Shown: positions 15,123 to 38,645, counted from the stretch's first letter. The stretch: DNA of 64,000 bases from an uncultured Candidatus Rokubacteria bacterium (GCA_963789955.1 CAWBMV010000034.1:1184001-1248000), one strand, 5' to 3'. The notes: generated from the sequence alone by a model not told the origin. Numbers and translations: made by a program.

Positions 15123-15165
15123 TGGTCAATACAGCACAGACTCCACAAGGCGAAGAGCGTACTCC
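15123..15165 (+). promoter_or_regulatory. Crp/Fnr-type box (TGGTC-AATACA-GCACA) with -10-like TACTCC
   Basis: Matches the island motif in reverse orientation; TA dinucleotide starts 37 nt after box start. Confidence 0.55.
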
Positions 15166-15228
15166 TTAGTTGGGCCCATCTGACGTCAGGCAGGCCTGGG
15201 ACGACCATTCCCGCTAGCTAAAGGATGA

Positions 15229-15948
15229 GTGATGAAACCACTGGGGGACCGGACGAGAGGTAGTGACCGCGCGCTGTATCGGCGCTTTGGCGCGGCGCTG
15301 GTGATCCTGGTGACCGCGGTTCCGCTCGGCACGCAGCCTGCCCGTTCCGGGGACGCAGTTCAGGCTGTGCAGCCGAGCGCGGTCGCGAGTCGCGTCCGCC
15401 CCCTCGACCTCGTCAAGTCGTCCGTCTCGCAGGTGCTGGCGGCCGTTCAATCACAGACGCCCGCCGGCAGCGAGAGCACCAGCCGCCGGACCGAGATTCG
15501 GCGGGTGGCGGACGCGTTGTTCGACTTCAACGAGATGGCTCGGCTGGCCTTGTCCCGGCACTGGAGCGCCCAGTCGCCGAGGGACCAGGACGAGTTCGTT
15601 CGACTGTTTACCGCGCTGCTGGAACGGTCCTATCTGTCGACGATCGAGAACTACGCTGGAGAGCGGATCGCGTTCCTGGGCGAGTCGATCAACGGCTCGT
15701 ACGCGCAGGTGCGATCCCGGATCACGACCGATCGCCGAGTGGAGATCTCGATCGACTACCGTCTCATCGACAGGGGCGATCGATGGGAGGTGTACGACGT
15801 GGTGCTCGACAACGTGAGCCTCGTCTCGAACTACCGGAGTCAGTTCAATTCGATCATCCGGACGTCGTCCTTCGGGGATCTGTTGACGAGGCTTCGGAAC
15901 AAGCAGATCGACGCGCATGTGATTCCGCGAGTCGGTCGCGGGTCGTGA
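15229..15948 (+). CDS. mlaC: MlaC/Ttg2D (HpnM-like) lipid-binding periplasmic protein, copy 1
   Basis: FDFNEMARLAL, IDYRL, WEVYDVVLDNVSLVSNYRSQF. Confidence 0.85.
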   Translation: MMKPLGDRTRGSDRALYRRFGAALVILVTAVPLGTQPARSGDAVQAVQPSAVASRVRPLDLVKSSVSQVLAAVQSQTPAGSESTSRRTEIRRVADALFDFNEMARLALSRHWSAQSPRDQDEFVRLFTALLERSYLSTIENYAGERIAFLGESINGSYAQVRSRITTDRRVEISIDYRLIDRGDRWEVYDVVLDNVSLVSNYRSQFNSIIRTSSFGDLLTRLRNKQIDAHVIPRVGRGS

Positions 15949-15994
15949 CGACCTTGACATCCGCCCGATCGAAAAGACACACGGAGAGAGCTAC

Positions 15995-16183
15995 ATGAGC
16001 CTGCTCGGAGTCGTCCTCACATTGGTCGTGGTCGGAGTTCTGCTCTGGTTGCTCAACAACTACGTGCCGATGGATTCGAAGATCAAGTCGATCGTCAACG
16101 TGGTCGTCGTCGTCGTCGTCGTCGTCTGGCTCCTGCAGGGCTTCGGGCTGCTCGGCTCATTGCAGAACATCCGCATGAGATAG
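15995..16183 (+). CDS. Small two-TM membrane protein (Thivi_2564-like)
   Basis: LVVVGVLLWLLNNYVPMDSKIKSIVNVVVV pattern; RBS GGAGAG. Confidence 0.8.
   Translation: MSLLGVVLTLVVVGVLLWLLNNYVPMDSKIKSIVNVVVVVVVVVWLLQGFGLLGSLQNIRMR
16103..16126 (+). repeat. (GTC)8 in-frame microsatellite encoding poly-Val
   Basis: Read directly. Confidence 0.9.
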
Positions 16184-16227
16184 CGGGCCCCTGAGGTCAT
16201 CGGGCGCGAAGAGAGCTGGTGATAGGC

Positions 16228-16296
16228 ATGTGGATGGCGTTCGCGATCGGGGTGACTGGTGTGCTGTTGCTCAAGATGTTCGTGCTGCGATTCTGA
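16228..16296 (+). CDS. Putative 22-aa single-TM micro-protein
   Basis: MWMAFAIGVTGVLLLKMFVLRF*, between two other micro-membrane genes. Confidence 0.35.
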   Translation: MWMAFAIGVTGVLLLKMFVLRF

Positions 16297-16384
16297 CGAG
16301 CCCGGCCCCTGTTTCGACCCGCGGGGTGCGATGGCATCAGCGGGTCAAGGGCCAGGACGTCAGGGGAGAGAGAAGGAGAGTGTC

Positions 16385-16534
16385 ATGTTGTGGACAGTTG
16401 CGGTGATTCTGTTGGTGCTGTGGGCGCTCGGGATGGGCACTGCGTACACGGGCGGCGGGTTGGTCCATGTCCTGCTCGTGATCGCGGCTATTGTCGTCGC
16501 ATTCCAGTTTCTAGGGGGTCGCCGGATCGTCTGA
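16385..16534 (+). CDS. lmo0937/DUF5670-like small membrane protein
   Basis: MLWTVAVILLVLWALG...GGLVHVLLVIA; RBS AAGGAG. Confidence 0.85.
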   Translation: MLWTVAVILLVLWALGMGTAYTGGGLVHVLLVIAAIVVAFQFLGGRRIV

Positions 16535-16673
16535 CGACGCCTCGGTGCGTGCGCGGTCGAGCGCCGCAGTAGGGACGTAGCGAGAAGCGTCGAGGATCCC
16601 GGCGACAAGACAACGACGAGTCGCCGGCGAGTAGGTCGCGTTAAACCACGTGTGTTGTGAGGAGAATCGGACT

Positions 16674-17235
16674 ATGCGGTACGGTACTACGATGACGGCA
16701 GCGATCTTGATGACCCTTGTCGTTGCGGCCCCGCTGGCAGCGGGCGCAGCCGACGAGAAGGCCCAGACCACGACGCAAGAAGTCACGACGATGGCCAGCG
16801 ATAGCTGGCTCACCTCCAAGACCAAGATCTCGCTCTTCGCCGACGAACGGGTGAAGATGACCCAGATCAGCGTCGACACCACCAAGGGTGTCGTCCATCT
16901 CCGCGGCAAGGTCGACTCCGCCGAGGCCAAGAGCGCCGCCGGCGACGTCGCGCAAGGGATCGAGGGTGTGAAGTCCGTGAAGAACGATCTCCAGGTGGTG
17001 ACGCCGGCGGCCCGCCAGGCGGTGGACGCCAACGATAAGGACATCGCAAAGGCCGTCGAGACCCGGTTCGGCAAGGATTCGCAGCTCAAGATGGTGGATG
17101 TCCGCACCGACTCCGGTGTCGTCACATTGACCGGTCAGGTGGCGACCATCGGCGCCAGCGCCAAGGCCTCCGAGATGGCGCGCGGCGTTGCCGGGCGTGA
17201 AGTCGGTCAAGAACGAGCTCGCCTTCGCGAAGTAG
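16674..17235 (+). CDS. Dual BON-domain (OsmY-like) protein
   Basis: DSWLTSKTKISL, GVVHLRGKV, GVKSVKNDL, second BON domain; terminal indel near 17195. Confidence 0.88.
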
Positions 17236-17425
17236 AGAACTAGCGGGCTAGGCAGTCGGAACGGGAGAGCAGTGACGGCGCCCGCCGTTCGGCAGCGACG
17301 TGAAGGGGCTGCGACGGCGGGCGTACTCGCATATGCGCTACACACGGTGGACTACATGGCGAGCGAGATCCGTCGCCCAGATGGTGGCGCCGGCGCAGAC
17401 CACAAAAGGATCGGGAACTTGGCGA

Positions 17426-17902: not shown

Positions 17903-18033
17903 GGGGCAGCTTCAACCGGACCGGCCGACATAACATGCCGGATTCGTTCGACTATTGACGCCGTGTGAGGCGCTGGGCTAGACTCTAGCCTTGACCCGTA
18001 TCGAATCCCTGCTCATATAAGAGGGAGCAATAC

Positions 18034-18684
18034 ATGGCCAAAAAAAAGACGCGCCACTCGATCTCAGGACGTACCTTGCGAAGGCCCGCGGGGGAACCAC
18101 CAAGGACTTTCGAAAGAAAGCCACCGTCTTCACGCAGGGCAGTACCCGCGGACGCGGTCTTTTACATCGAGAAGGGCAAGGTGAAGCTGACGGTCCTGTC
18201 CACGCGCGGAAAGGAAGCGGTCGTCGCAATCTTGGGGAGCGGCGATTTCTTTGGTGAAGGGTGCCTCGCGGGACAGCCGCTTCGCATGGCCACGGCGACC
18301 GCGATGACCGAGTGCTCGATCCTTCGGCTTCAAAAAGAAACCATGGTCCGGATGCTCCACAATGAGCCCGCATTGTCCGAGCTCTTCATGGCGTACCTGC
18401 TCTCCCGGAATGTGCGGATCGAAGAGGACCTGGTCGATCAGCTGTTCAATTCCAGTGAGAAGCGGCTGGCGCGGATTCTGTTGTTGCTGACCCGCTTCGG
18501 CAAAGACGGGCAACATGAGCCCGTCGTGCCCAAGATCAGTCAGGAAACCCTGGCCGAAATGGTCGGGACGACGCGGTCCCGAGTCAGTTTCTTCATGAAC
18601 AAGTTTCGGAAGCTGGGCTTCATTGAATACAACGGCGGCTTGAACGTTCATAGCTCCCTCCTGAATATCGTCCTCCACGACTAG
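18034..18684 (+). CDS. Crp/Fnr family transcriptional regulator, copy 1
   Basis: cNMP-binding FFGEGCLAGQPLRMATA and HTH ISQETLAEMVGTTRSRVS; 5' indels. Confidence 0.93.
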   Translation: MAKKKTRHSISGRTLRRPAGEPPRTFERKPPSSRRAVPADAVFYIEKGKVKLTVLSTRGKEAVVAILGSGDFFGEGCLAGQPLRMATATAMTECSILRLQKETMVRMLHNEPALSELFMAYLLSRNVRIEEDLVDQLFNSSEKRLARILLLLTRFGKDGQHEPVVPKISQETLAEMVGTTRSRVSFFMNKFRKLGFIEYNGGLNVHSSLLNIVLHD

Positions 18685-18722
18685 AGGGCGTCAGACCGGT
18701 CCTCCCTCCTAAGTAGAAGACC

Positions 18723-18775
18723 TGAGCAATTCTGCTCAGACAGCAGAACCTGAGTGGTCGACCCTGTGATGCATG
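18723..18775 (+). promoter_or_regulatory. Crp-type box (TGAGC-AATTCT-GCTCA, perfectly inverted arms), -10 GACCCT, ATG near +1
   Basis: Perfect 5-6-5 inverted repeat 38 nt after the crp stop. Confidence 0.75.
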
Positions 18776-18902: not shown

Positions 18903-19157
18903 ATGCAAGTCGAAGCTCTTCGTCTCTTCATCCGGGAGAAGCTCCAAGACGGCCGTCTACCTCACGAGCAGATCTCACAGGTGCAAAGCCGTCCAGCCGA
19001 CGGACAGAAATGCGACGCCTGCGAGAAGCTCATTACGATGGCCCAGTTCGTGGTGACGGGGACCACCCTCGCGGGTCGGGGATCCATTCAGTTGCACGTC
19101 GAATGCTTCCAGCTCTGGGACGACGAGAGGTCCGCGCGGAGGTCGAAAACCGCGTGA
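18903..19157 (+). CDS. Small CxxC...HxxC putative zinc-binding protein, paralog 1
   Basis: CDACEKLIT...LHVECFQLW; paralog at 25463; RBS GAGGG. Confidence 0.75.
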   Translation: MQVEALRLFIREKLQDGRLPHEQISQVQSRPADGQKCDACEKLITMAQFVVTGTTLAGRGSIQLHVECFQLWDDERSARRSKTA

Positions 19158-19197
19158 GCAATATTGACCAGTCTTCGCGTGCCGGCGCGGATAGAGT
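19155..19197 (+). promoter_or_regulatory. Crp-type box (TGAGC-AATATT-GACCA) with -10 TAGAGT
   Basis: -10 begins exactly 37 nt after box start. Confidence 0.7.
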
Positions 19198-19229: not shown

Positions 19230-19670
19230 ATGACGACTCCCGTAACGTGGCTCAATGAAGGCTCTCGCCTTGATGGTGTCCGGGTGCTGGTCGTCGACGA
19301 CGCGCGCAACGTGCGAGAGGTCGTGAGTGACATCCTCACGCATGATGGCGCCACGGTCACCGCGGTCGATTCCGCCGAGGAGGCGCTCGCCGCGCTGCAG
19401 AGGGAGCGCCCGGACGTGCTCCTGAGCGACCTCGCGATGCCCGGAAAGGGTGGCTACTGGCTGATCGGGCAGGTTCGGGCGCTCCCGCCTGAGCGTGGTG
19501 GAGTTACCCCCGCCGCGGCCCTGACGGCTTACACCGGTCCCGAACACCGCGCGAGCGTCCTGAGAGCAGGGTTCCAGCTCCATGTGGAGAAGCCCATCGG
19601 TCTCGATGCGTTGATCGGGGTCGTGGCGATGCTGGCGCCGAAGGAACGCGCCGTAGCACCCAGGTTGTGA
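19230..19670 (+). CDS. Stand-alone response regulator receiver
   Basis: VLVVDD, SDLAMPG, ALTAY, HVEKP. Confidence 0.9.
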   Translation: MTTPVTWLNEGSRLDGVRVLVVDDARNVREVVSDILTHDGATVTAVDSAEEALAALQRERPDVLLSDLAMPGKGGYWLIGQVRALPPERGGVTPAAALTAYTGPEHRASVLRAGFQLHVEKPIGLDALIGVVAMLAPKERAVAPRL

Positions 19671-19722: not shown

Positions 19723-21526
19723 GTGGGCCTGCGAAGCCCGCGCCGGGGCTCGGCGCGCCGGCGGGCGACGTCCGTGCTGGAGGAGCGCCTGCGGTTCGAG
19801 ACGCTCCTCTCGGAGCTCTCGGCTGGGTTGATCCACCTCCCGGCCAGCGCGATCGACGCGGCGCTCGCGCGCGCGCTGCAGCAGGTCGCCATGTTCCTCG
19901 GCGTGGATCGCGGCAGCCTCGACGTGTACGCCGGAGGCGAGCCGGGGGTCCGTGTCTCATGGACGCGGCCCGGCCTCGAAGAGCCGCCGCGGGTCATGGA
20001 CGCCGATCAGTTCCCCTGGACGGCCAAGAGACTCTGGAGCGGGGACATCGTCCGATTCGCTCGGACCGATGAGCTCCCGGAAGACGCGGCGCTCGATCGC
20101 GCAAGCTACGAGCGCGCGGGTACGCGATCGAAGGTGTCTCTCCCCCTGAGCGCCGGTGGTCCCGATGCTCGGCGTGCTCTCCTTCGGCTCGGTTCGGAGC
20201 GAACGAGCCTGGCCAGCCGAGTTGGTGGAACGGCTTCGCCTTCTCGGCGCGGCCTTCGCCAGTGCCCTGGAACGGAAGCGCATGGAGCTCTCGCTCGCCG
20301 AGCGCGTTCGATTCGAGAAGCTCCTGTCGTCCCTCTCGACCGCATTGAGTCATCTGTCGGCCGGCGATTTCAATCGAGAGGTTCAGCGCGCGCTTCATCG
20401 CGTCGTCGACTTCCTCGGGGTGGCGCGCGGTAGTCTGATCGAGTTCTCCCGGGACGGGAGCACCACCCATTCGTGGGCGATCGAGGAATGGATGGACGTC
20501 GGCGAGTTCCCGTGGATGACGGCGCGCCTGCAGCGCGGAGACGTCGTCAGCTTTTCCGAGATCGAGAAGCTTCCGGACGAGGCCGCGGTGGACCGGCGGA
20601 GCTATCTCGATCACCGCGTCAAGCCCCAGGTGGCGGTGCCGCTGCTGGCAGGTGGCATCGTGGTGGGAGGCCTCGTGTTCAGCACGGGCGACGCCGAACG
20701 CTCGAGGTCGGACGAGGTGTTACTGATGCAGCAGCTGCACCTCCTCGGGGAAGTCTTCGCCAATGCGCTGTCGCGCAAGCAGGGAGAGCTCGAAACGCAG
20801 CGGCTGCGGCAGGAGCTGACGCACATCGGCCGGGTGTCTGCGATGGGCGAGCTCAGTGCGTCCCTGGCCCACGAGCTGAACCAACCGCTGACCGCGATCC
20901 TCAGCAACGCTCAGGCGGCTCAGAATCTGCTCGCGTGCGACGTCGTCGATCTCGAGGCGATGCGCGAAATCCTGACCGACATCGTCGCGGATGACAAGCG
21001 GGCCGCTGCCGTGATCCGCCGGCTGCGCAGCTTGCTCAGGAAGGGTGACCTCGAGTTCGTCCCGCTCGACGTCAACGAAATCGTCAGTGAAGTGGGTTGG
21101 CTCGTGAAGAACGATGCGCTCACCCGCAACGTGTCGCTGCGCCTCGACCTCGCCGCCGATCTGCCAGGGGTGCTCGGCGACCGGGTGCAGCTGCAGCAGG
21201 TGGTGCTGAACCTGGTGCTGAATGGCCTCGAAGCCCTGCGGCCACCCTGGGCGGGTGCCCGAACTCTCGTCATCCGGACCGCCAGGGACGGTGCCACCAC
21301 CGTCACGGTTGCGGTTCAGGACTCCGGCGCCGGGATCGATGAGAAGGACACGGACCGCATCTTCCAGCCCTTCTACACGACCAAGGCCGAAGGATTGGGT
21401 ATGGGCCTGGCCATTGCGCGAACCATCGTGGACGCGCACGGCGGCCGGCTGGTCGCCGCGAACAACGAACATGGCGGGGCGACCGTCCGGTTCACGTTGC
21501 CGATGGGGAGGACGGACGAATGCTGA
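19723..21526 (+). CDS. Sensor histidine kinase with two GAF-like domains (frameshift near 20160)
   Basis: Repeated ERLRFE...FPW units; AHELNQPL, QVVLNLVLN, DSGAGI, FYTTK, GMGL. Confidence 0.88.
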
Positions 21527-22153
21527 CCGCAGTCGTACCGCTCGTCTTCGTCGTCGACGATGACCTTTCGGTGCGCAAGAGCTTGAGTCGCTTGCTGACA
21601 TTGGCCGGGTACACGGTCGAGGCGTTCCAGTCGGCCCGCGAGTTCCTGACGCGTGAAGCGCCGGAGGGCCCGTGCTGCCTGGTCCTCGACGTGCGGATGC
21701 CAGGCCTCACCGGGATCGAGATGCAGGAGGCGCTGGCGGCCGCGGGGCGCCGAATGTCCATCGTCTTCATCACGGGTCACCTCGACGTTCCGGCGAGCGT
21801 CAAGGCCATGAAAGGCGGGGCGGTCGACCTGCTCACCAAGCCAATCGATCGGGAAGAGCTCCTGGCCGCGGTCGCGCGGGCCGTAGCAAAGGACGCGGCG
21901 GATCTGGAGCGACGAGACTCGCACCGCGGAGATCCGGCAGCGCGTCAAGATGCTGACCGTGCGGGAGACGCAGGTCTTCGCGCTCGTCGTGACGGGAATG
22001 TTGAACAAGCAGATCGCCTACGATCTCGGTGTCGGCCTGAAGACGATCAAGGCGCACCGCGCGCGGGTCATGGAAAAGATGCGGGCGGCATCGGTGGCCG
22101 AGCTGGTTCGTCTGGCGGACGCGGCCGGCGTGATCGTGCCCGGGCCCTCGTGA
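21520..22153 (+). CDS. FixJ/StyR-type response regulator (REC + LuxR HTH; frameshift near 21920)
   Basis: VVDDD, LDVRMPG, ITGH, LTKP; LTVRETQV...NKQIA...TIKAHRARVMEKM. Confidence 0.9.
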
Positions 22154-23064
22154 CGGCGGCGCACCGGCTCTCGTCGCGCATCGACCGATTTCCGCCGCCC
22201 CGTCTCACGCCGCGCGTCGTCTGGTCGCTGCTCCGGGAGACGGTCTTCGAGTGGTACGAGGACCGGGCGCCGAGGCTGGGGGCGGCGCTCGCGTTCTACA
22301 CCGTCTTCGCGCTGGCGCCGGGGCTGATCGTCATCATCGCCCTCGCGGCGCTCCTGCTCGGGCATGAGGCGGCGCAGGGCCAGATCATCGATCAGGTACA
22401 GGACCTCATCGGCGTCGCCGGGGCCCAGGCGATTCAGGCGGCGATCGAGAGTGCCCGCAGCGCCGGCGGCAGCCTCGCCGCCACCGGCCTGGGCGTCCTC
22501 ACGCTGCTGTTTGGGCTCTGGGGTGTCTTCGGAGAGCTGCAGGACGCGCTGAACACCATCTGGGGCGTGACGACCAGGCCCTGGCGTGGGGTGATCGGCG
22601 CCGTCAAGGAGCGTTTCTGGTCGTTCACGATGGTCGTCGGCATCGGATTCTTGCTGCTCGTCTCCCTCGCCGCCAGTGCCTGGCTGGCGGCGGTCGGAAA
22701 GTTCTTCGCCCAGCTGTCGCCGCTACCGGTGGCGGTGATGGAGACGGCCAACGCGCTTCTGTCGTTCGTCACCATCACCCTCATGTTCGCCGTGATCTAC
22801 AAGCTCCTGCCGGACGTGAAGATCACGTGGCAGAACGTGTGGGTCGGCGCCGCCGTGACGGCGCTCCTGTTCACGATCGGCAAGTCGTTGATCGGACTCT
22901 ATCTGGGTCGCAGCACGGTGGCCTCGGTATACGGCGCCGCCGGCTCTCTTATCGTCATTCTGCTCTGGATCTACTACTCGGCTCAGGTCGTGTTCTTCGG
23001 CGCGGAGTTCACCAAGGTCTACTCGAGGCACTTCGGAACGCACGTTCGCGCCGGATCCTCGTGA
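22150..23064 (+). CDS. YihY/BrkB family membrane protein
   Basis: GAALAFYTVFALAP, ELQDALNTIW, YGAAGSLIVILLWIYYSAQVVFFGAEF. Confidence 0.9.
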   Translation: MTAAHRLSSRIDRFPPPRLTPRVVWSLLRETVFEWYEDRAPRLGAALAFYTVFALAPGLIVIIALAALLLGHEAAQGQIIDQVQDLIGVAGAQAIQAAIESARSAGGSLAATGLGVLTLLFGLWGVFGELQDALNTIWGVTTRPWRGVIGAVKERFWSFTMVVGIGFLLLVSLAASAWLAAVGKFFAQLSPLPVAVMETANALLSFVTITLMFAVIYKLLPDVKITWQNVWVGAAVTALLFTIGKSLIGLYLGRSTVASVYGAAGSLIVILLWIYYSAQVVFFGAEFTKVYSRHFGTHVRAGSS

Positions 23065-23146
23065 TGTAAATCCCGTCCGCACGTGGCCAAGGTCCAATAC
23101 CGCGGCGGCGCGCGGTGCCCTACAGTCATCAGGAGAGGTATTCCCT

Positions 23147-23584
23147 GTGATCGACGCACCCGTCATCGCCATCGTCGACGATGACGCCTCGATCCGTCGG
23201 GCGCTCCATCGCCTGGTCCAGGCGAAGGGCTATACCGTCGAGAGCTTCGCCTCCGCCCGTGAGTTTCTCGACGCGGTGCCCCACTGCCGACCGGCCTGCC
23301 TCGTGCTCGACGTCCATCTCAACGGGAGCGGGTTCGAGCTCCAGGAACGCCTGGCCGCCGACGGGCTGAAGATCCCGATCATCTTCATCACGGCCCACGA
23401 CGACGACTCGACCCGGCGTCGGCTCGAAAAGTGCGGGGCTGTCGCGCACCTCTGGAAGCCCGTGGACGAGCAGGCGTTACTTCAGGCGATCCAGCGCGCC
23501 ATCTGGCCGGACGACGACCCGAGCGCGATGCGCCCTAGAGCTGCTCGCGGACCGGAAGGGACAGAAGCTCCAGGAACTGGCTGA
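23147..23584 (+). CDS. Single-domain response regulator
   Basis: IVDDD, LVLDVHL, FITAH, LWKP. Confidence 0.85.
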   Translation: MIDAPVIAIVDDDASIRRALHRLVQAKGYTVESFASAREFLDAVPHCRPACLVLDVHLNGSGFELQERLAADGLKIPIIFITAHDDDSTRRRLEKCGAVAHLWKPVDEQALLQAIQRAIWPDDDPSAMRPRAARGPEGTEAPGTG

Positions 23585-25320: not shown

Positions 25321-25363
25321 TGAGCAATTCTGACCAGACGTCAGAACGTGATTGGCCGATCCT
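25321..25363 (+). promoter_or_regulatory. Crp-type box (TGAGC-AATTCT-GACCA) with -10 GATCCT
   Basis: 37-nt offset; promoter module paralogous to 18723. Confidence 0.75.
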
Positions 25364-25462: not shown

Positions 25463-25714
25463 ATGGACATCGAAGCCCTTCGTCTCCTCATCCGAAGCAA
25501 GCTCAATGACGGGCGCCTGCCGTATGACAGCATGCCGAGATTCTGGGGCGGTGCCGGCGACGGGGAGCAGTGCGACGTCTGCGACACGCTCATCACGAAG
25601 GAGCAGTTAGTGATGGAGGGCATTGCCTCCGTGCTCAGCAACAAGAAGCCCGTTCAATTTCACGTCGGGTGCTTCTACGCCTGGGATGCCGAGCGGCGCG
25701 TGCCGCAGTCGTAG
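25463..25714 (+). CDS. Small CxxC...HxxC putative zinc-binding protein, paralog 2
   Basis: MDIEALRLLIRSKLNDGRLP...CDVCDTLIT...FHVGCFYAW; RBS GAGGAG. Confidence 0.78.
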   Translation: MDIEALRLLIRSKLNDGRLPYDSMPRFWGGAGDGEQCDVCDTLITKEQLVMEGIASVLSNKKPVQFHVGCFYAWDAERRVPQS

Positions 25715-25799: not shown

Positions 25800-25853
25800 T
25801 GAGCAATTGTGAACAGAATTAAGAACCGACACTGGACCATCTTGTAGCGCATG
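25800..25853 (+). promoter_or_regulatory. Crp-type box (TGAGC-AATTGT-GAACA), -10 CATCTT, ATG near +1
   Basis: Motif match; precedes the bEBP ATG with no RBS. Confidence 0.65.
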
Positions 25854-26960
25854 GCGCGGCGTGACCCGTCCGACTTCGACCCCGGGAACGGTGCGGGGAT
25901 CTGGGCTACAGGAGCCCCACGACACGGCGACGCGGCGGTGGCCTTCGCCGCTTCCATCGTGGAGCCCACCAACGACCGTCCGCTCCTCGACGGAAGCCCC
26001 CAGATGCGCGCCATCGTGACCGTCATCGAGAATGTCGCCGATACGGACGCGACGGTCTTGATCCGTGGTGAAAGCGGCGTCGGGAAGGATCTGGTGGCCA
26101 GAGCCGTCCATGCTGCCTCGTCGCGCTGTCGTGGTCCGTTCGTCAAGGTCAACTGCGCCGCGATCCCGCTGGGGCTGCTCGAGTCCGAGTTGTTCGGGCA
26201 CGAGAGGGGAGCCTTCACCGGCGCGCACCAGCGTAAGCATGGGCAGTTCGAATATGCGAACAGGGGCACGATCTACCTGGACGAGCTTGCGGAGCTGCCG
26301 CTGGCCCTCCAGGCCAAGCTCCTGCACGTGTTGCAGGACTTCCAGTTCTCACGCGTGGGAGGCCTCGAGCTTCTACAAGTCGACACACGGGTGGTCGCCG
26401 CGACGAATCGTAACCTCGAGGCGGCGATGGCGCGCGGCGAGTTCCGCGAGGACCTTTACTACCGCCTCAACGTAGTCGAGATCAAGGTGCCCCCGCTGCG
26501 GGAGCGCCGCGAAGAGATCCCGGCATTGGCTTCGCGGTTCCTGGCCCGGTTCAACTCCCAGTACGGGCGGCAGAAGCAGCTCATGCCCGAGACGCTGGCG
26601 CGGCTGACCGAGTACTCCTGGCCCGGTAACGTGCGCGAGCTCGAAAACGTGATCCGCCGGCTGGCAGTGCTCGGAGACGGGGACCAGACGATGGAGGCCC
26701 TGATGAGCCGGAATCGCAATGGACACAACGGATATCACGGGCATAACGGGCACGTCCCAGTTCCATCGCCGATCGCCTCGGAGGGCCTGAGAGAGGCCGG
26801 GCGCCGCGGGGCGCGAGACGCCGAGCGCACGGCGCTCCTGGAAGTGCTCGATCGCGTGAGCTGGAACCGTACCCAGGCCGCGCGGATTCTCAAGGTCAGC
26901 TACAAGACGCTGCTCAAGAAAATCTCCGAATGCGGCCTGACGCCGCCTGTTCGCGGCTGA
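25851..26960 (+). CDS. Sigma54-dependent activator (AAA+ and Fis HTH) lacking a regulatory domain
   Basis: GESGVGKD, ESELFGHERGAFTGA, LDE, FREDLYYRLNV, WPGNVRELEN, C-terminal HTH. Confidence 0.92.
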   Translation: MARRDPSDFDPGNGAGIWATGAPRHGDAAVAFAASIVEPTNDRPLLDGSPQMRAIVTVIENVADTDATVLIRGESGVGKDLVARAVHAASSRCRGPFVKVNCAAIPLGLLESELFGHERGAFTGAHQRKHGQFEYANRGTIYLDELAELPLALQAKLLHVLQDFQFSRVGGLELLQVDTRVVAATNRNLEAAMARGEFREDLYYRLNVVEIKVPPLRERREEIPALASRFLARFNSQYGRQKQLMPETLARLTEYSWPGNVRELENVIRRLAVLGDGDQTMEALMSRNRNGHNGYHGHNGHVPVPSPIASEGLREAGRRGARDAERTALLEVLDRVSWNRTQAARILKVSYKTLLKKISECGLTPPVRG

Positions 26961-27066: not shown

Positions 27067-27117
27067 TGAGCACTTCTGACCAGACGCCGGACCCTGCGTT
27101 GGCGATCCTGGTGTATG
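27067..27117 (+). promoter_or_regulatory. Crp-type box (TGAGC-ACTTCT-GACCA), -10 GATCCT, ATG near +1
   Basis: 37-nt offset; heads the mlaC2-MMPL operon. Confidence 0.75.
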
Positions 27118-27869: not shown

Positions 27870-30662
27870 ATGGTTCCGCTCTCGCTGACCGGCAGGATCT
27901 TACAGACCCTCGTCCGGCTTTGCTGCGCCCACCCAGCGTTGACGGTCTCCATGGCGTTCGCCTGTGCCGCGCTCGGCGCCGGTTATGCGGCACATTCCCT
28001 CACGCTCGAGACGTCCAAGTTCCATCTGCTGCCGCTCCACCAGCAGTACGCCACGCTCTACAAGGACTACGCCGAGGACTTCGGCCAGCTCGAGGACATC
28101 GTCGTGGTCGTGGAAGCCCCGCAGATCGAGACCTCGACGGCTTACGCGGCCCGCCTGGCCGGTGTTCTTCGCCACGGCGCCCTCGAGACGGCGCGCATCA
28201 GCTATCGGATCGACGCGAGCCGTCTCGAAGCGCACGGGCTCTTGTACCTGCCGCTCGACACGCTACGAACGACGCTCGACACGGTCGCCGGCCAGGAAGA
28301 GCTGCTGGCCGACTTCGCCGGCAGCTCGACGCTCGATCGTCTGGTTGCCGGCATCAACCAGTCCATCGGCGGAACTTTCCTGCCAGGCGTGTTCGGCCCC
28401 GGGGGCGGGGACGAGCCGAACCCAGCGCCCGCGCGTCTGCTTCGCGATCTCCTGACCCAGATGTCGGAGCGGATCGACGGCGGGCCGTACCGCTCGCCCT
28501 GGGTGAATTTGATCGCAGCCCCCACGTTCGCACCGGACGGCGGCTACTTCTTGTCCCACGACCGGCGCCTCCTCTACGTCGTGGTTGACCTCGTCGAGGT
28601 ACCGCGCACCTTCGCCACCGAGCACGCGGCGGTCCTCGCCATCCGGGCCGCGATCGCGAGCCTCCGCCAGGAGTTTCCATCGGTCGAGGCCGGCGTCACG
28701 GGAGCGCCCGCGCTCTTCAGTGACGAGCTGACCGCCGCCACCCGAGACGGCGAGATCGCCAGTGTCCTGGCGTTGTTCCTCACGCTCGGTCTGTTGATGC
28801 TCGCGTTTCGACGGCTCGCCACCTCGTGCGCGATGCTCGTCGTGCTCGCCTTGAGCCTGGGCTGGTCGCTCGGCATCATCACGCTGCTCGTCGGCCAGCT
28901 CACGATCTTTTCCATGATGTTCGTCTCGGTCGTCATCGGTCTCGGGAGCGACTACGGCATCTTCTTCCTGTTCCGATATCGGGAAGAGCGAGTGCTCGGT
29001 CTGACGCTCGTCGGTGCGCTCGAGCGTACCGCGGCGCGAAGCGGCCCGGCCATTCTGCTGGGTGCCCTCACCGCTGCGGTGACCTTCTACATCCTGACCA
29101 TCGCCGAGTTCAGCGGTATCCGCGACTTCGGCTTCATCTCCGGCACGGCGATCCTTCTCGCATTTCTGTCGATGCTCACCGTCTTCCCGGCGACCGTGCT
29201 GCTCCTCGACCGGTGGCGGGGGGCCCCGCGACTCGTGCCGATCGCCGGCCGTCCAGACACTCACCGGTCGCCCGACCTCAAACCGATCGAGCGCAGACAA
29301 TTGCAGGTCCCAGCGCTGGAGTGGCTCGCGGGTTTTCCGAAGACCATCGTCGCCGCCGCGGTCCTCCTGACCGCCGCATCGCTGTGGGCGGCACCGCGGG
29401 TGGGTTTTGACTATAACCTGTTGAACCTCCAGGCCGACGGCACCGAGTCGGTCGTCTGGGAGAGGAAGGCCGCTGCCGCTTCGGGACGCTCGGTGTTCGC
29501 AGCGCTCTCGACGGCCGCGTCGCTCCCGGAGCTCGAGGACAGGCAAGCCGCATTTCAGCGCCTGCCCTCCGTCTCCGACGTCCAGAGCGTCCTGTCGGTG
29601 TTACCCGATCGACAGGCCGACAAGCTGGCAGTTCTCCAGCGCCTTGGAGACGTGGCCGACAGCATCCGCCCGGGCGCGCCGCGCCCCCTCGATCTCCGTG
29701 CGCTCACCGTGGCGCTCGAGACCTTGAAGCGCCGCCTCGACGTCGCGAGTGCGCAAAGCGGCGCCGGGGGGCCGCCGGAGGAGATCGTCGCCACTGCCCG
29801 AACGACCTCGAGGCTTCTCGAGAGGCTCAAGGCGCGCGAGGGCGGTGCCGTCGAGGTCGCGCTCGCCGACTACCAGGCGCGGCTGTCGGCCGACTTCGCC
29901 CAGCAGTGGCGCCGGCTCCAGCTGGCGGCCCGGCCGGCGCCTCTCACGCCGGGCGATCTGCCGGAAGAGCTGCGACGAAAGTTCATCGGCAAGAGCGGGC
30001 ACCTGCTTCTTCAGGTGTACTCCCGGCTCGACCTCTGGGATCGGCACAGTCAGGCGCGCTTCGTGGAGGAGCTGCGGACCGTCGACCCGAGCGTCACGGG
30101 ACAGCCTGTCGTCGCCTACGAGTCGACGCAGCTCATCGAGCGGACGTTCCGGCTCGGACTGGCGTACGCCTTCGCGCTCGTCGCCGGCATCGCGGCGCTC
30201 ATGATCCGCCGTGTGCGGGAGACCGTGCTCGCGATGGTGCCGCTGATCCTGGGCACGCTGTGGACGGTCGGGATCATGCAGTTGGCCGGGCTGAAGTTCA
30301 ACCTGGTGAACGTCTGGGCGCTTCCGCTCATCGTCGGCTCCGCCGCCGAGTACGGCGTGAACATCGTTCTCCGGTCTCTCGAATCGGAGGCGCACGGCGA
30401 GGGACGACGGCTCGCGCGCAGCACCGTCATGGGGGTGGTGTTCAACGGTCTCACGACCCTGGCGGGCTTCGGCAGCCTGCTCGTCGCGCACCATCGAGGC
30501 GTGTGGAGCCTGGGCTTGCTGCTCGTGATCGGCTCCGCGACGACGCTGATCGCCTCGCTGGTCGTGCTGCCCACGCTGGTGCGCCTCGGCGGCGAGCGCC
30601 GCCGATCTGAGGCCGAGCACAGCCCTGTGGTCGCCACCGCCGTGACCGCGATCGCAAGCTAG
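27870..30662 (+). CDS. MMPL/RND family transporter, HpnN (hopanoid exporter)-like
   Basis: 930 aa; GLLYLP, AGVTG, GLGSDYGIF, FDYNLLNLQ, VTGQPV, GFGSLLVAHHRG. Confidence 0.88.
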   Translation: MVPLSLTGRILQTLVRLCCAHPALTVSMAFACAALGAGYAAHSLTLETSKFHLLPLHQQYATLYKDYAEDFGQLEDIVVVVEAPQIETSTAYAARLAGVLRHGALETARISYRIDASRLEAHGLLYLPLDTLRTTLDTVAGQEELLADFAGSSTLDRLVAGINQSIGGTFLPGVFGPGGGDEPNPAPARLLRDLLTQMSERIDGGPYRSPWVNLIAAPTFAPDGGYFLSHDRRLLYVVVDLVEVPRTFATEHAAVLAIRAAIASLRQEFPSVEAGVTGAPALFSDELTAATRDGEIASVLALFLTLGLLMLAFRRLATSCAMLVVLALSLGWSLGIITLLVGQLTIFSMMFVSVVIGLGSDYGIFFLFRYREERVLGLTLVGALERTAARSGPAILLGALTAAVTFYILTIAEFSGIRDFGFISGTAILLAFLSMLTVFPATVLLLDRWRGAPRLVPIAGRPDTHRSPDLKPIERRQLQVPALEWLAGFPKTIVAAAVLLTAASLWAAPRVGFDYNLLNLQADGTESVVWERKAAAASGRSVFAALSTAASLPELEDRQAAFQRLPSVSDVQSVLSVLPDRQADKLAVLQRLGDVADSIRPGAPRPLDLRALTVALETLKRRLDVASAQSGAGGPPEEIVATARTTSRLLERLKAREGGAVEVALADYQARLSADFAQQWRRLQLAARPAPLTPGDLPEELRRKFIGKSGHLLLQVYSRLDLWDRHSQARFVEELRTVDPSVTGQPVVAYESTQLIERTFRLGLAYAFALVAGIAALMIRRVRETVLAMVPLILGTLWTVGIMQLAGLKFNLVNVWALPLIVGSAAEYGVNIVLRSLESEAHGEGRRLARSTVMGVVFNGLTTLAGFGSLLVAHHRGVWSLGLLLVIGSATTLIASLVVLPTLVRLGGERRRSEAEHSPVVATAVTAIAS

Positions 30663-30681: not shown

Positions 30682-31996
30682 ATGAAGGTCCGTTCAATCG
30701 TCGTCGGTGTCATCCTCGTCGTGGCGTCGGTGCTCATGGCCGACAACGTTCAGGGTCAGAGCAAGGCTACGGGCAACGGAATCGACGCCCACGTGCGCAC
30801 GATGCTCGAGAATGGGCGGCGAATCTTTCGCTTCGATACCTTCGGCAGCGAAGCCTTCTGGGGCGAGACGCTCCAGCTCCACAGAGCCATCGCCGGCGAG
30901 AAGAACGGAGGTGTCGGCGGCGGCGTGAGCCCAAAGACCGCGCTGTCGGTCGGCCTGAAGGTCGATGCGGATGCGTTGCCCGCCCCGCTGAAGCGGCAGA
31001 TCAAGGACGGCAAGGTCGACCTCGACGACCCCGCGACCACGCTCGCCCTTCTCAAGCTGAACTCGGTCGTCGGCGTCACCGGGTTGTTCAACACCCAGGG
31101 GAACCTCGTCTCGATGGGACTTCAGTGCGCTCTCTGCCACTCGACCGTGGACGACTCCTTCGCATCCGGGATCGGCAAACGCCAGGACGGGTGGGCCAAC
31201 CGTGACCTCAACGTCGGGCTCATCGTGTCGCTGGCGCCGAACCTCACGCCGTTCGCCGAGCTCCTCGGTGTCGACGTCGCCACGGTGAAGAAGGTGCTCA
31301 CCAGCTGGGGGCCCGGCCGATTCGATGCCGAGCTCGACAAGGACGGCAAGGCCTTTCGACCGGACGGAAAGCAAGCAGGAACGCTGATTCCTCCCGCCTT
31401 CGGTCTCGCCGGCGTGAACCTGAGCACCTGGACGGGCTTTGGATCCGCTCACGTACTGGAACGCGTACGTCGCGGCGACGCAGATGCACGGCGCGGGGAC
31501 GTTCTTCGACGCGCGGTTCAACGATGGCGAGCAATATCCGGTATCGGCCAAGAGTCACTCCGGCAACACGCGCCCAACGCGTGACGCGGTGACCTCGAAG
31601 CTGGCGGCTCTTCACTTCTACCAGCTCGCGCTGCCCGCGCCGAAAGCGCCGGCGGCGAGCTTCGACAAGGACGCCGCCGCGCGCGGACTCGTGCTGTTCA
31701 ACGGCACCGCCAAGTGCGCCACCTGTCACGTCCCGCCGCTCTTCACCGAGCCCGGAAACAACCTGCACGCGCCCAGCGAGATCGGCGTTGACTCTTTCCA
31801 GGCTGACCGCTCACCGACTCACATGTACCGGACCGCGCCCCTCGCCGGGCTCTGGACCCACCAGAAGGGCGGCTTCTACCATGACGGCCGCTTTGCCACG
31901 TTGCGGGACGTGCTCGAGCACTACGACGCGTTCTTCAAGCTGGGGTTGAGCGAGCGGGAAAAGACCGAGCTCACCGAATACCTGAAATCGCTGTAG
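30682..31996 (+). CDS. Periplasmic di-heme c-type cytochrome (frameshift near 31445)
   Basis: Signal peptide; CALCH and CATCH; YRTAPLAGLW...FYHDGRF peroxidase-like C-terminus. Confidence 0.8.
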
Positions 31997-35761: not shown

Positions 35762-35926
35762 GTCGTTCCGAGAATCAGTCAGGAAACCCTGGCCGACATG
35801 GTCGGGACCACGCGGTCCAGGGTGAGTTTCTTCATGAACAAGTTTCGGAAGCTGGGCCTCATTGAATATAGCGGGGGGCAACTGCAGGTTCACAGCTCCC
35901 TCCTGGGGGTCGTCCTCCACGACTAG
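35762..35926 (+). pseudogene. Crp/Fnr remnant (HTH only), third copy
   Basis: VVPRISQETLADMVGTTRSRVSFFMNKFRKLG...VLHD*, highly similar to the crp 3' ends; cNMP domain absent. Confidence 0.8.
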
Positions 35927-36015
35927 ACGGCGTCGATACCCCGTTATCAGTCGCAGCGCAAGCCAGCGGACGATCCGACGGCAGTCATCGCGCTCCGCGA
36001 GCAAGACCCGCCCGG

Positions 36016-36118
36016 CGTCTCCATGACCGCCACCGTACGTGTACGGGTAGCGCTCTTGGGCGGAGTGTCTTGACCATCCCTCGAAGACGGGAGGGGCTCG
36101 GTGGCTATGGTCCAACTC
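36016..36118 (+). repeat. About 100-bp leader repeat, copy A
   Basis: Aligns with 37007-37107; contains the CCGTAC-GT-GTACGG palindrome. Confidence 0.8.
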
Positions 36119-36999
36119 CGCGGAGAGTGCGCGATGCCCGTCAAAGGTGCTGGGGCGATGGCGACACAGTTGAGGAAGACCGGACTCGGTGTTCTGGGCG
36201 ACATGCCGTGGGGGACCCACTGTTGTCACTTCTATCAGACGCAAAAGGAGCTCTTGGAGACGCTCGTCCCTTATTTCAAGGCGGGCCTGGAGAGCCGGGA
36301 GTTCTGCTTCTGGCTCGTCCCGGAACCCCTGACCGAGGCGAAGGCCCAGAGGGCGCTGCGCCAGCATCTGCCCGACGCTGATCGATACCTGGCGGACGGG
36401 AGCATCGAGATTGTATCGAGCCGGAAGTGGTATCTCCACCGAGGCAAGTTTTCGCGCGCGCGGGTCGCCCGTATATGGAACGAGAAACTGGAGCAAGCAT
36501 CGGCTCGAGGCTACACCGGGGTGAGGGCCACTGGGAACGCCTTCTGGCTCCACAGAAAGCAGTGGAGGCTCTTCGATGAGTACGAACGAACGCTCAATGA
36601 CTCCCTTGCCGGGAAAGTCCTTGGTCGTCTTGTGCAGTTATCCGCTCGTCGTGTGCGGAGCGACCGAGGTGCTCGACGTAGCGCGGAATCATCACTTTGC
36701 CATCGCAAAGCGAGCGAGGAAATGGGAGGTTGTCCAGTGGCGGACGCCGTCCAGCTCGGCGCGAGCGCTACGAGGCCCTGACGAGCCGGGAGCGAGATGT
36801 GTTCCACCTGGCCGCCGAGGGCCACACCAACCCCCAGATTTCCCAGCGACTATCTATTGGCGTCCGTACCGTCGAGGGCTACCGCGCGAATCTCATGCGC
36901 AAGCTTGGCCTGCGCAATCAGACCGACTTGGTCCGGTACGCGCTCCAGGGGGGACTGCTGCCCGACGAAACATGGATCCGCCAGAGGAAAGGCGACTGA
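36101..36999 (+). CDS. MEDS domain + LuxR/NarL HTH regulator (frameshifted)
   Basis: PWGTHCCHFYQT, FKAGLE, EYERTLN, LCSYPL; LTSRERDV...TNPQI...TVEGYRANLMRKL. Confidence 0.85.
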
Positions 37000-37006
37000 C
37001 GCCGGT

Positions 37007-37107
37007 CCTCTCCGTGACGCCACCGTACGTGTACGGCTAGCACTTTTAGGCAGAGTGCGGGATCATTCTCGAGGACGGGAGGGGTTCTGATGGCGATGGT
37101 CCAACTC
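37007..37107 (+). repeat. About 100-bp leader repeat, copy B (leading into uORF MAMVQLGS*)
   Basis: Aligns with 36016-36118. Confidence 0.8.
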
Positions 37108-37130
37108 GGCAGCTAGGCGGGGCCGACTCG

Positions 37131-37786
37131 ATGGCACAGAAAAAAAATGACGTGCCGCTCGATCTCAGGACGTATCTGGCGAAGGCCCGCGGGGGAACCA
37201 CCAAGGCCTATCGGAAAGAAAACCACCGTCTTCTCGCAGGGCAGTCCCGCGGACGCGGTTTTTTACATCGAGAAGGGCAAGGTGAAGCTGACGGTCCTGT
37301 CCACGCGCGGGAAGGAAGCGGTCGTCGCAATCTTGGGGAGCGGCGATTTCTTTGGTGAAGGGTGCCTCGCGGGACAGCCGCTTCGCATGGCCACGGCGAC
37401 CGCGATGACCGAGTGCTCGATCCTTCGAGCTTCAAAAAGAAACCATGGTCCGGATGCTCCACAATGAACCCGCATTGTCCGAGCTCTTCATGGCGTACCT
37501 GCTCTCCCGGAATGTGCGGATCGAAGAGGACCTGGTCGATCAGCTGTTCAATTCCAGTGAGAAACGGCTGGCGCGGATTCTGTTGTTGCTGACCCGCTTC
37601 GGCAAGGACGGGCAACATGAGCCCGTCGTGCCCAGGATCAGTCAGGAAACCCTGGCCGAAATGGTCGGGACGACGCGGTCCCGAGTCAGTTTCTTCATGA
37701 ACAAGTTTCGGAAGCTGGGCTTCATTGAATACAACGGCGGCTTGAACGTTCATAGCTCCCTCCTGAATATCGTCCTCCACGACTAG
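37131..37786 (+). CDS. Crp/Fnr family transcriptional regulator, copy 2 (frameshifted)
   Basis: Nearly identical DNA to 18034-18684. Confidence 0.9.
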
Positions 37787-37790
37787 AGGG

Positions 37791-38432
37791 TCAGTACCTC
37801 CGAGGGCGCTGAAGCTCCTCGTCCAGATGCTCCGTCCCGACGCGACGATTCCATCGCCACACGCCGACGGCCAGGATCGCCGCAAGAGTCAGCAGGACGG
37901 CGAGACCAAGCCACCGCTCTGCCCGGTGCACATCGGCCACGATGGCTTTGATCTGATCGGTGAAGAAGTAGGCCAAACCGAACACTAGCGGGACGCCGAG
38001 TACGGCGGCACCCACGTCCGCCACGACGAACTTCCAGAACGGCACGCGCGCAATGCCCGCCGTCAGAAACGCGGCCGCGCGGAGCCCCATGACGTGCCGC
38101 GCCGTGACGACCGTCTTCAGCGCATGCCGTCGATACGCCGCCTTGAACCACATCTCGCGCGCGGGCGACAGGACCAACCGGACTACTCGCCAGTTGAGGA
38201 CCTGCTCACCCCAGTGGCGGCCGACCCAGTAGAGCACCATATCACCGGATAGGACCCCCAGCAGACAGACGGGTAGCGCAAGCCACCACCGGACGATTTC
38301 CTCGTGGCTCAGCACGGCGGCCGCGATGATCGGCATTTCCTCGGGGATCGGCACTCCCAGGCTGCCGAGCAAGAGCACGGCGAAAACGCCGATGTACGTA
38401 AAGTTGTCGACGAACTCCTGGAGTGCCTCCAC
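37791..38432 (-). CDS. DedA family membrane protein
   Basis: GVPIPEE, GDMVLYWVGR, ARHVMGLR. Confidence 0.9.
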   Translation of the reverse strand: MEALQEFVDNFTYIGVFAVLLLGSLGVPIPEEMPIIAAAVLSHEEIVRWWLALPVCLLGVLSGDMVLYWVGRHWGEQVLNWRVVRLVLSPAREMWFKAAYRRHALKTVVTARHVMGLRAAAFLTAGIARVPFWKFVVADVGAAVLGVPLVFGLAYFFTDQIKAIVADVHRAERWLGLAVLLTLAAILAVGVWRWNRRVGTEHLDEELQRPRRY

Positions 38433-38592
38433 CGCATCCTCGCTGGACCAACGATGTTGCGTGTGCTCAGGCCCTTCGTGCAGTGTAGCCCGACCCCGAC
38501 CGGGTACGCTGCCAGGACCCTGTAAGGGCCTCGGTACCGGCTATCTGTCGCGGCGGTCGAGCAAAACCGCGATTCGCGGCAATCGCCAGACC

Positions 38593-38645
38593 TGAGCAAT
38601 TCTGATCAGCGTCAGAACTTGTATTCGACGATCCTTCACCGTATG
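38593..38645 (+). promoter_or_regulatory. Crp-type box (TGAGC-AATTCT-GATCA), -10 GATCCT, ATG near +1
   Basis: 37-nt offset. Confidence 0.75.

Follow-up and report, generated by a model that had tools for sequence, protein, structure and literature searches.

A probable operator of one Crp subfamily, in class II promoter geometry, in a Rokubacteria genome

The window analysed here, a stretch of 64,000 nucleotides from an uncultured Candidatus Rokubacteria bacterium, contains a repeated palindromic box lying among genes for Crp/Fnr-family proteins. This raises the question of which protein reads the box, and with what effect on the genes behind it.

The boxes and the promoter cassette

Re-reading of the sequence located all seven 5-6-5 sites described in the first-pass annotation, on the + strand and with a trailing G, and found their -10-like hexamers 37 nt from the box start (38 nt at 25800). 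The box, TGAGCAATTTTGAMCA then GAC, is a 16-bp 5-6-5 palindrome. The trailing G is part of a -35-like CAGACN overlapping the right half-site, and the local -10 hexamers are weak.

15123..15165, + strand: box TGGTC-AATACA-GCACA, -35 slot CAGACT, weak -10 TACTCC; 5' of mlaC1
18723..18765, + strand: box TGAGC-AATTCT-GCTCA, -35 slot CAGACA, -10 GACCCT; cassette copy, 38 nt past the crp stop
19155..19197, + strand: box TGAGC-AATATT-GACCA, -10 TAGAGT; 5' of a stand-alone receiver (19230-19670)
25321..25363, + strand: box TGAGC-AATTCT-GACCA, -10 GATCCT; cassette copy, 5' of a CxxC...HxxC protein (25463-25714)
25800..25843, + strand: box TGAGC-AATTGT-GAACA, -10 CATCTT at offset 38; cassette copy, ATG at 25851
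27067..27109, + strand: box TGAGC-ACTTCT-GACCA, -10 GATCCT; cassette copy, 5' of mlaC2
38593..38635, + strand: box TGAGC-AATTCT-GATCA, -10 GATCCT; 5' of the PAS-HisKA gene

The seven sites are not independent of one another. Five of them (18723, 25321, 25800, 27067 and 38593) share homology far past the 16 bp and are therefore duplicates of one promoter cassette, leaving 15123 and 19155 as the two that are no cassette copies. The 15123 site is the weakest of the seven (its hexamer lacks the final T and scores -2.5), and its orthologue is present in G108 (L141:1039), the sole relative, among 16 genus genomes, matching this stretch past the end of pgm. The 19155 site has the best -10 of the seven, and its box-receiver unit recurs in G108 and G138.

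At its downstream end the cassette runs into the predicted leaderless start of the PAS kinase gene, whose first codons it includes. Of 38 cassettes, 21 have an ATG at 7 nt past the weak GATCCT/CATCCT hexamer, and 11 rows from relatives keep this ATG in the PAS kinase frame; the spacing reported for leaderless genes is 6-7 bp (PMC12340547). The start of the PAS gene, earlier put at 38837, was moved to 38643, its ATG lying 7 nt past the hexamer. Contigs from RNA runs X15 and X16 cover the PAS gene, with little or none over 38479-38652; the contigs start at differing points, and contigs do not show transcription starts. The probable ancestral cassette is that at 38593, which in relatives sits directly after crp, whereas here dedA (37791-38432) stands between the crp copy and the box. 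Two other promoter candidates were rejected, namely a sigma-54 promoter in TGGCGCGACGTGTC, where GG and GC are wrongly spaced and the motif coincides with the ATG that opens a coding sequence, and an ECF-type pair, GATCC ... CGTGTC, whose spacing ranges from 15 to 18 nt across copies and whose downstream part is coding.

The repeat might also act as RNA structure instead of binding a protein, given that in the cassette family an inverted repeat of 7 bp (TTCTGAC...RTCAGAA) extends into the right half of the box and pairs at 199 of 259 positions. This is exceedingly improbable, as the two strands have similar numbers of wobble-compatible mismatches (18 and 20), other-phyla sites lack the inverted repeat, and a structured leader was rejected because 37 sequences folded as shuffled ones do (mean z 0.04), with no consensus structure and no Rfam match.

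The strict pattern derived from the seven sites, and circular for the seven themselves, has nine matches in the 6.8-Mb genome, two of them additional sites on contig C37. When the window was simulated 100 times with an order-3 Markov model, it had none. Leave-one-out matrices recovered six sites with only 3-8 genome matches scoring equal or higher; that for 15123 gave 168 at or above its score. A matrix from 95 other-phyla sites placed the seven boxes within the top 11 genome matches, every matrix training site having been chosen with patterns derived from the window's own sites. All 11 are non-coding, in a genome ~76% coding by our own gene calls. Each of the seven sites scores higher on the + than on the - strand, the correct orientation toward its gene. 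De novo palindrome counts in 80 loci ranked TGAGC-N6 first among 5-mers with spacer 6; this ranking was not used as evidence because other spacers gave similar z-scores from coding DNA. Four further sites lie elsewhere in the genome, outside the region, and no box was found 5' of crp itself, of the minus-strand cls and dedA, of the MEDS/LuxR gene or of the AI-2E gene. The sites of the proposed island-wide regulon are thus real, but "island-wide" does not describe them, several island genes being boxless and four sites lying outside.

A Crp subfamily that accompanies the box

The region carries the following crp sequences.

18034..18684, + strand: crp, Crp/Fnr family, helix TTRSRVSFF
35762..35926, + strand: crp C-terminal fragment, remnant of a further copy
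37131..37786, + strand: second crp copy, 97% identical to 18034, 1-base insertions near 37214 and 37430

The 18034 protein matches PF00027 (60.5 bits) and PF13545 (43.4 bits), both above cut-off, and the intact homologue in G108, when modelled, resembles CRP folds, the rmsd of ~14 Å arising from domain orientation; the model bears on the fold and not on the ligand. The annotated 18034 protein, put forward for EMSA, would carry ~35 out-of-frame residues near its N terminus, the ORF having a 1-base deletion near 18039 and an insertion at 18144. A copy on contig C35 is missing its native N terminus, and no island crp copy is intact in this assembly. The circuit could therefore be decaying in this genome, the repeats being mostly relics of a duplicated promoter amid reshuffled modules and broken regulator copies, and the regulon no longer working. 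Such decay would fit the frameshifts in both island crp copies and many neighbours, as well as five sites that copy one cassette down to the first codons of the PAS kinase gene. The indels are, however, probably assembly errors, because the flanking genes, pgm and the aminotransferase for example, carry single-base indels too, and contigs from independent soil runs, like G108, are free of those in crp. Moreover, 15123 and 19155 are no cassette copies and the boxes are retained in G108 and G109, which together make the relic reading very unlikely.

The box adjoins this Crp subfamily in Rokubacteria, Acidobacteriota, Nitrospirota and Alphaproteobacteria. Of 80 loci drawn from several phyla, 71 have it near the subfamily gene; the 192 matches compare with 28 when these loci were simulated once with a Markov model. 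For 74 of 116 Crp matches, a box lies ≤300 nt downstream or ≤600 nt upstream. Boxes number 10 per 10 kb up to 300 bp from crp and 0.25-1.7 farther out. The subfamily itself occurs in 80 of 201 sampled Xanthobacteraceae (the family of L116) and, in the window's class, in 31 of 250 genomes, as well as in Acidobacteriota and Nitrospirota. Within the Xanthobacteraceae sample, where kin are not independent, the strict pattern is present in 52 of the 80 Crp-bearing genomes and in 13 of the 121 that have no detected Crp, and a reversed-control pattern in 3 of 201; 28 of the 80 have no strict match. Another 13 of 219 genomes without detected Crp carry one. A Bradyrhizobium japonicum plasmid bears the gene with boxes beside it (WP_038944727.1 is an intact homologue from this species), and a Granulicella plasmid stretch with three Crp/Fnr genes gave no match at score 14 or more.

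The recognition helix R-S-R-V-S-F typifies the subfamily. Among 115 homologues its first Arg (CAP R180) is present in 100% and R182 in 99%, CAP numbers having been assigned by hand on the alignment. Pro-type relatives (RPRISG) have a shifted, Clr-like box such as TGTTCC-N4-GGAACA, several fitting HGTYHC-N4-GRWACA. At position 11, boxes close to genes for non-Pro helices have T in 83 of 96 cases, and those close to genes for Pro helices have G in 9 of 13. Among genomes of the class, the standard pattern occurs in 11 of 20 non-Pro (G097 and G125 counted as such without their helix being seen) and 0 of 11 Pro; the variant, designed from five of its own seven Pro-genome matches, occurs in 0 of 20 and 7 of 11. 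Fifteen of 16 Pro-type proteins fall in one clade of a quick tree, so the covariation amounts to a single phylogenetic contrast. In Clr, K197 of the RPKVNR helix reads C6/G11 (PMC10187061; PMC10127613).

Because the box accompanies the subfamily in several phyla and shifts in the sub-branch whose recognition helix has changed, it is probably the docking site of this Crp subfamily, through which signalling, envelope and probably stress genes would be activated. The earlier proposal that the box is the operator of the local Crp is thereby backed by comparative evidence across phyla. A different crp-associated regulator might bind instead, as FixJ-like, LuxR and sigma-54 activator proteins are all encoded in the region. 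It is very unlikely, since in 52 of 67 loci with a box the locus itself yields neither a LuxR-type nor a sigma-54-activator hit, the sites crowd within 300 bp of crp, the box changes along with the Crp helix, and the cassette shows no sigma-54 -24/-12 spacing.

Class II geometry and predicted outputs

At class II promoters the CRP site is centred at -41.5. Of 101 sites from the several phyla, oriented without use of the -10 (33 of 134 were dropped for ambiguous orientation), 49 have TANNNT at offset 37/38, compared with 2 for the mirror control, and CAGAC in the -35 slot overlaps the right half-site. This fixed spacing to the -10 and the overlapping -35-like element support class II geometry. 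The comparison thus upholds the geometry first claimed.

A dimer of the subfamily would bind the box centred about -41.5 and activate sigma-70-type promoters in class II manner, these being weak without the activator. Contact with the outer TG would fall to the first helix Arg (CAP R180), and the invariant position-3 Arg would read the inner G:C, as does K197 of Clr. The preference for activation over repression is drawn solely from promoter geometry. A right half-site overlapping CAGACN in the -35 slot would, on a repression reading, block RNA polymerase, and several other-phyla promoters with a good TANNNT might fire unaided. Repression is nevertheless very unlikely, in that spacing is fixed to within one base across phyla, which occlusion does not need, the local hexamers are weak, and class II activators occupy the -35 region (PMC10187061).

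Under activation, the outputs would be signalling proteins (a PAS kinase, a receiver and a sigma-54 activator that lacks a sensor), a pair of small Zn-binding proteins and two lipid-transport units of MlaC/MMPL type.

15229..15948, + strand: mlaC1, MlaC/HpnM-like
after mlaC1 to 17243, + strand: small membrane proteins (Thivi_2564, lmo0937/DUF5670) and a double-BON protein (16650-17243)
18903..19157, + strand: CxxC...HxxC protein of 84 aa, paralogue of 25463
19723..23584, + strand: kinase group behind the 19230 receiver (GAF-HisKA kinase, FixJ-like regulator, YihY/BrkB, receiver)
25851..26960, + strand: sigma-54 activator with GAFTGA, predicted leaderless, ATG 7 nt after the hexamer
about 27200-27844 and 27870-30662, + strand: mlaC2 and an HpnN-like MMPL transporter
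38643..39481, + strand: PAS-HisKA gene, predicted leaderless; frameshift near 38750 in this assembly

The genes from mlaC1 through the double-BON protein possibly share one transcript. The TGA stop of the 84-aa protein forms the first three bases of the 19155 box. Of the receiver-kinase operon named earlier, the box-receiver unit is kept; the kinase-regulator pair is absent from the matching region of G108, and its co-regulation is therefore at most putative. No receiver or sensor domain was found in the sigma-54 activator, which has captured a piece of the PAS kinase N terminus as its own initial ~40 residues. The region holds no tRNA, and no integrase was found among 49 scanned ORFs; its GC content is 0.651 compared with 0.683 (9 of 252 windows are as low), and variable content lies between flanks common to the window and G108.

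The 63 other-phyla targets scanned against Pfam (30 of 93 downstream ORFs were excluded as doubtful calls, near-duplicates or Crp copies) include YflT, CsbD, YtxH, DUF3309, DUF1328, Transgly_assoc, AI-2E, Band_7 and HisKA_2 kinases. They suggest a stress and envelope response, a label resting on a minority, as 28 of the 63 have no Pfam hit.

Ligand, significance and relation to known systems

The cAMP signatures are E72, RS (82-83) and TS (127-128) (PMC10187061). In the 115 homologues E72 (99%) and R82 (86%) are kept, and the RS/TS signatures are absent, S83 being M/I/L/T and T127-S128 being I/V/F/M then E/Q. The signal of this Crp is thus probably not cAMP, which raises the question of the ligand sensed. 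With the loss of these signatures, activation by cAMP or cGMP becomes doubtful.

The literature and databases searched gave no named model, solved structure or motif for this subfamily, and the literature no description of subfamily or motif, with figure logos, supplements and most subscription papers outside its scope; only unnamed Crp/Fnr clusters were matched in the ESM Atlas. Although the activation mechanism itself is textbook, a specific operator makes the regulon predictable from sequence, including in uncultured Rokubacteria, and the subfamily is common in abundant, hard-to-study soil groups. The B. japonicum plasmid, carrying gene and boxes, makes the system testable in a culturable strain. 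More speculatively, the branch could be a cyclic-nucleotide-independent master switch of a sigma-70 general stress response in soil bacteria, one that travels across phyla with its operator, gains new target genes by copying a ready-made promoter cassette, and reads DNA through a Clr-like code of the position-3 Arg, of which a natural Ser-to-Pro variant rewrote the operator; this wider picture is tentative and rather doubtful.

The best sequence and fold hits are the actinobacterial CRP/GlxR proteins (Mtb CRP, 3MZH; C. glutamicum GlxR, 4CYD; E 3e-17, 26-28% identity), which bind cAMP and have a RETV helix not shared here. Mtb CRP and GlxR read TGTGA boxes. FNR/FixK and NtcA belong to the same superfamily, and NtcA sites are reported to be centred near -41.5 (PMC3898017). 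FNR is defined by a four-Cys Fe-S motif plus an ExxSR-type helix (PMC3590769); the present protein has no such helix, no Glu in the helix and no four-Cys motif, with one conserved Cys, C76. Its NCBIfam scores are far below cut-off (NtcA 52/245, Fnr (NF008365) 22.7/228 bits).

E. coli CRP resembles this subfamily in its cNMP-binding and Crp HTH fold, a 5-6-5 palindrome starting TG, a -35-region site and the conserved R180. It differs in its helix (RETVGR versus RSRVSF, at about 23-24% identity), in its RS/TS signatures, replaced here by RM/RI/RL and IE, and in its box, TGTGA-N6-TCACA as against TG(A/T/G)(G/T)C-A...T-G(A/C)NCA; none of the seven sites fits the former within one mismatch. S. meliloti Clr (PDB 7PZA/7PZB; cluster G) has likewise lost E181 and has a basic residue at helix position 3, but it is not an orthologue (22% identity, 33 bits), keeps its cNMP-binding residues and is activated by cAMP and cGMP. 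In place of the C6/G11 of Clr, the Ser-type box of the window has invariant C5/G12 and A6/T11. The RPKVNR helix and the HGTYHC-N4-GRWACA site are absent from the window's protein and boxes and are approached only by the Pro-type relatives. The Ser/Pro pair offers a natural test of the Crp recognition code beside the solved Clr-DNA structure.

The boxes and their genomic setting

The seven 16-base 5-6-5 Crp/Fnr-type boxes, with their trailing G and hexamer offsets, were found exactly as placed by the first-pass annotation.

Features of the window
15123, 18723, 19155, 25321, 25800, 27067, 38593: the seven boxes
17955-17984: crp promoter, sigma-70-like (TTGACG-18-TAGACT), without a box; TAnnnT kept there in related contigs
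18034: crp ORF, with a deletion near 18039 and an insertion at 18144
18730-18748, 25328-25346: 7-bp inverted repeat over the right half-site and -35 slot of the Rokubacteria cassette
18903-19157, 25463-25714: paralogous CxxC...HxxC proteins (83-84 aa), with further paralogues on contigs C3 and C20; no match to the 25463 protein in Pfam or NCBIfam
25851-26960: sigma-54 activator gene
30682-31996: split gene behind the MMPL gene, with weak MauG/di-haem peroxidase similarity
36101-36999: MEDS sensory domain, then LuxR HTH, probably a single frameshifted gene, between copies of a 114-nt repeat (36009-36121, 37000-37110)
37131: further crp copy, with two insertions
38643-39481: PAS kinase gene

A matrix from the seven sites gave 11 matches scoring ≥19 in 6.77 Mb, all 11 non-coding. 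With a matrix from 95 sites of other phyla, which is not fully independent because its training sites were chosen with the window-derived pattern, the seven lay within the top 11 genome matches, together with C37:19058(-), C37:19097(+), C37:20338(+) and C34:915052(-); the next match, reverse readings of the same sites set aside, was coding and 2 bits lower. The seven boxes are not chance occurrences. Leave-one-out testing and the -10 hexamer both mark 15123 as the weakest site; it is nonetheless retained before mlaC in the related genome G108.

On contig C37, two back-to-back boxes (19057-19113) form a divergent promoter pair, with the third site 1.2 kb on (20338) and small genes behind. At C34:109932 lies a different, AT-rich palindrome, TAATCAATACTGATCA, without a -10 at offset 37, which is probably the site of another regulator; its neighbors we take, from their sequence, to be an excisionase-like HTH gene and a citrate-synthase-like gene.

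The 15-40 kb region (GC 0.651 versus 0.683) is a reshuffled module set between flanks common to G108, in which no tRNA was found, nor any integrase among 49 ORFs scanned. It encodes MlaC (two copies), an HpnN-like MMPL protein, BON, small membrane proteins, YihY, DedA, AI-2E, kinases, receivers and the sigma-54 activator, along with a PLD-domain (cls-like) gene; crp is present as three copies or pieces. Among named relatives, the nearest to the window Crp comes from a Ca. Rokuibacteriota genome (83%). Besides the indels in the two window crp copies, the copy on contig C35 lacks its native start. The crp indels are absent from G108 and from contigs of independent soil runs, and many single-base indels separate the window from G108, including in the flanking genes pgm and aminotransferase; assembly error is thus the likelier cause of the crp indels in this strain. 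The comparison suggests an error-prone assembly, so split genes in the window are not to be taken as pseudogenes.

Cassette duplication and promoter geometry

Extended shared flanks, from ∼60 nt upstream to ∼100 nt downstream, revealed that five (18723, 25321, 25800, 27067 and 38593) are copies of one cassette, leaving three independent promoter types in the window. The 3′ part of the cassette corresponds to the beginning of the PAS kinase gene, and the N terminus of the sigma-54 activator still holds a piece of it. Several relatives have the box and PAS kinase immediately after crp, an arrangement that is probably ancestral, and copying of a promoter likely enlarged the regulon. Independent support for the box is provided by other phyla, whose sites have unrelated flanks. 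Because its N terminus is a captured PAS kinase piece, the sigma-54 activator has no sensor domain and could be controlled by transcription alone, in which case a Crp-to-sigma-54 relay may operate.

Among 101 sites of other taxa, oriented solely by the trailing G after 33 ambiguous ones were dropped, TANNNT occurred at offset 37 in 36 and at offset 38 in 13, compared with a single site at either offset in the mirror direction. These sites have the -35-like element CAGAC at offsets 14-18, where it overlaps the right half-site. If transcription begins at offset 49, the box center lies at -41.5. The window hexamers, of the GATCCT type, are weak, and gain independent support from an ATG that follows them by 7 nt in 21 of 38 cassette copies (no ATG in eight, other gaps in nine). 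In 11 rows from relatives this ATG shares the reading frame of PAS kinase; in the window and the relative G109 it shares that of the sigma-54 activator. Both the PAS kinase and sigma-54 activator genes appear to be leaderless, with the ATG 7 nt past the -10; for leaderless genes in Deinococcus, a spacing of 6-7 bp is reported (PMC12340547). The inverted repeat in the Rokubacteria cassette may serve as another protein site overlapping the first, or simply reflect common descent.

Linkage to one Crp subfamily and the predicted regulon

The window matrix gave 192 matches in 71 of 80 loci around Crp homologues of Acidobacteriota, Nitrospirota, Alphaproteobacteria and others, versus 28 in one Markov simulation. 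A box lay ≤300 nt downstream or ≤600 nt upstream in 74 of 116 Crp matches, and box density rose tenfold within 300 bp of crp. A LuxR-type or sigma-54-activator gene was absent from the fetched stretch in 52 of 67 box-bearing loci. Among 80 Xanthobacteraceae genomes carrying the Crp, 52 had the strict pattern, derived from the window sites, versus 13 of 121 lacking the Crp, a contrast whose p-value relatedness would inflate; against the link stand the 28 Crp-carrying genomes without a strict match and the Granulicella plasmid stretch, on which no good box was found. On a B. japonicum plasmid (NZ_CP126014.1, 10614-12678) the Crp and three boxes lie near genes for Ku, glucose dehydrogenase and a GH15 hydrolase, offering a test system in a culturable organism. 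Taken together, the sequence data indicate that this Crp subfamily probably uses the box as its class II activator site. The earlier reading of a Crp operator in class II promoters is supported in part: it gains from the cross-phyla crp link and fixed -10 spacing, and its five duplicates are not independent sites.

Predicted local targets, each with a box upstream, are mlaC1 (perhaps with BON and small membrane proteins), mlaC2-MMPL, the two CxxC...HxxC proteins, a receiver, the sensorless sigma-54 activator and the PAS kinase. The proposed island-wide regulon does not hold, as boxes are missing in front of crp, cls, dedA, MEDS/LuxR and AI-2E; nor were boxes found among the top matches at paralogous mlaC, BON or Zn-protein genes elsewhere in the genome. 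Of 63 first genes scanned behind boxes in other phyla, 35 had a Pfam match, including six HisKA_2 kinases, three receivers, two sigma-54 activators and two other Crp proteins, as well as YflT, CsbD, YtxH, DUF3309 (twice), DUF1328, Transgly_assoc, AI-2E and Band_7. CsbD, YflT and YtxH are markers of general stress regulons, and a stress role is inferred with moderate confidence.

DNA recognition compared with CAP and Clr

No NCBIfam model passes for the window Crp, its best PDB matches share 26-28% identity, and no description of the subfamily with its box was found in the literature, where figure logos are unsearchable and subscription papers were mostly out of reach. The recognition helix reads T-T-R-(S/P/A)-R-(V/I)-S-F-F in 115 homologues, with R180 (CAP numbering) in 100% and the third-position Arg in 99%. 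Equivalents of E72 and R82 are retained, and the Cys in GEGCL in 92%, whereas S83 is replaced by M/I/L and T127-S128 by I-E, so that the cAMP signature is absent. The protein may act ligand-free, sense redox state or respond to a different ligand.

Members of the RPRISG clade of the subfamily, with Pro at helix position 2, have boxes of the form TGTTC-AAnnnG-GRACA, whose distance to a TA-starting hexamer is unchanged; box position 11 is G in nine of 13 of their sites and T in 83 of 96 for other helices. Within the window's class, non-Pro genomes had the standard pattern in 11 of 20 and the variant in none, whereas Pro genomes had the standard pattern in none of 11 and the variant in seven, five of which had shaped the variant pattern. 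This apparent helix-box covariation is a single evolutionary contrast, and the assignment of residues to bases is inferred. E181 and R185 of CAP read G4 of TGTGA (PMC10187061), and readout in Clr is moved to the inner G by Pro at position 2 together with Lys at position 3 (PMC10187061, PMC10127613). Unlike CAP, the subfamily lacks E181 and R185, and its box retains TG, not TGA. The subfamily would work in a CRP-like manner at a class II promoter, and its DNA reading appears more Clr-like; with helix, site and ligand signature all different, it belongs to neither CRP nor Clr.
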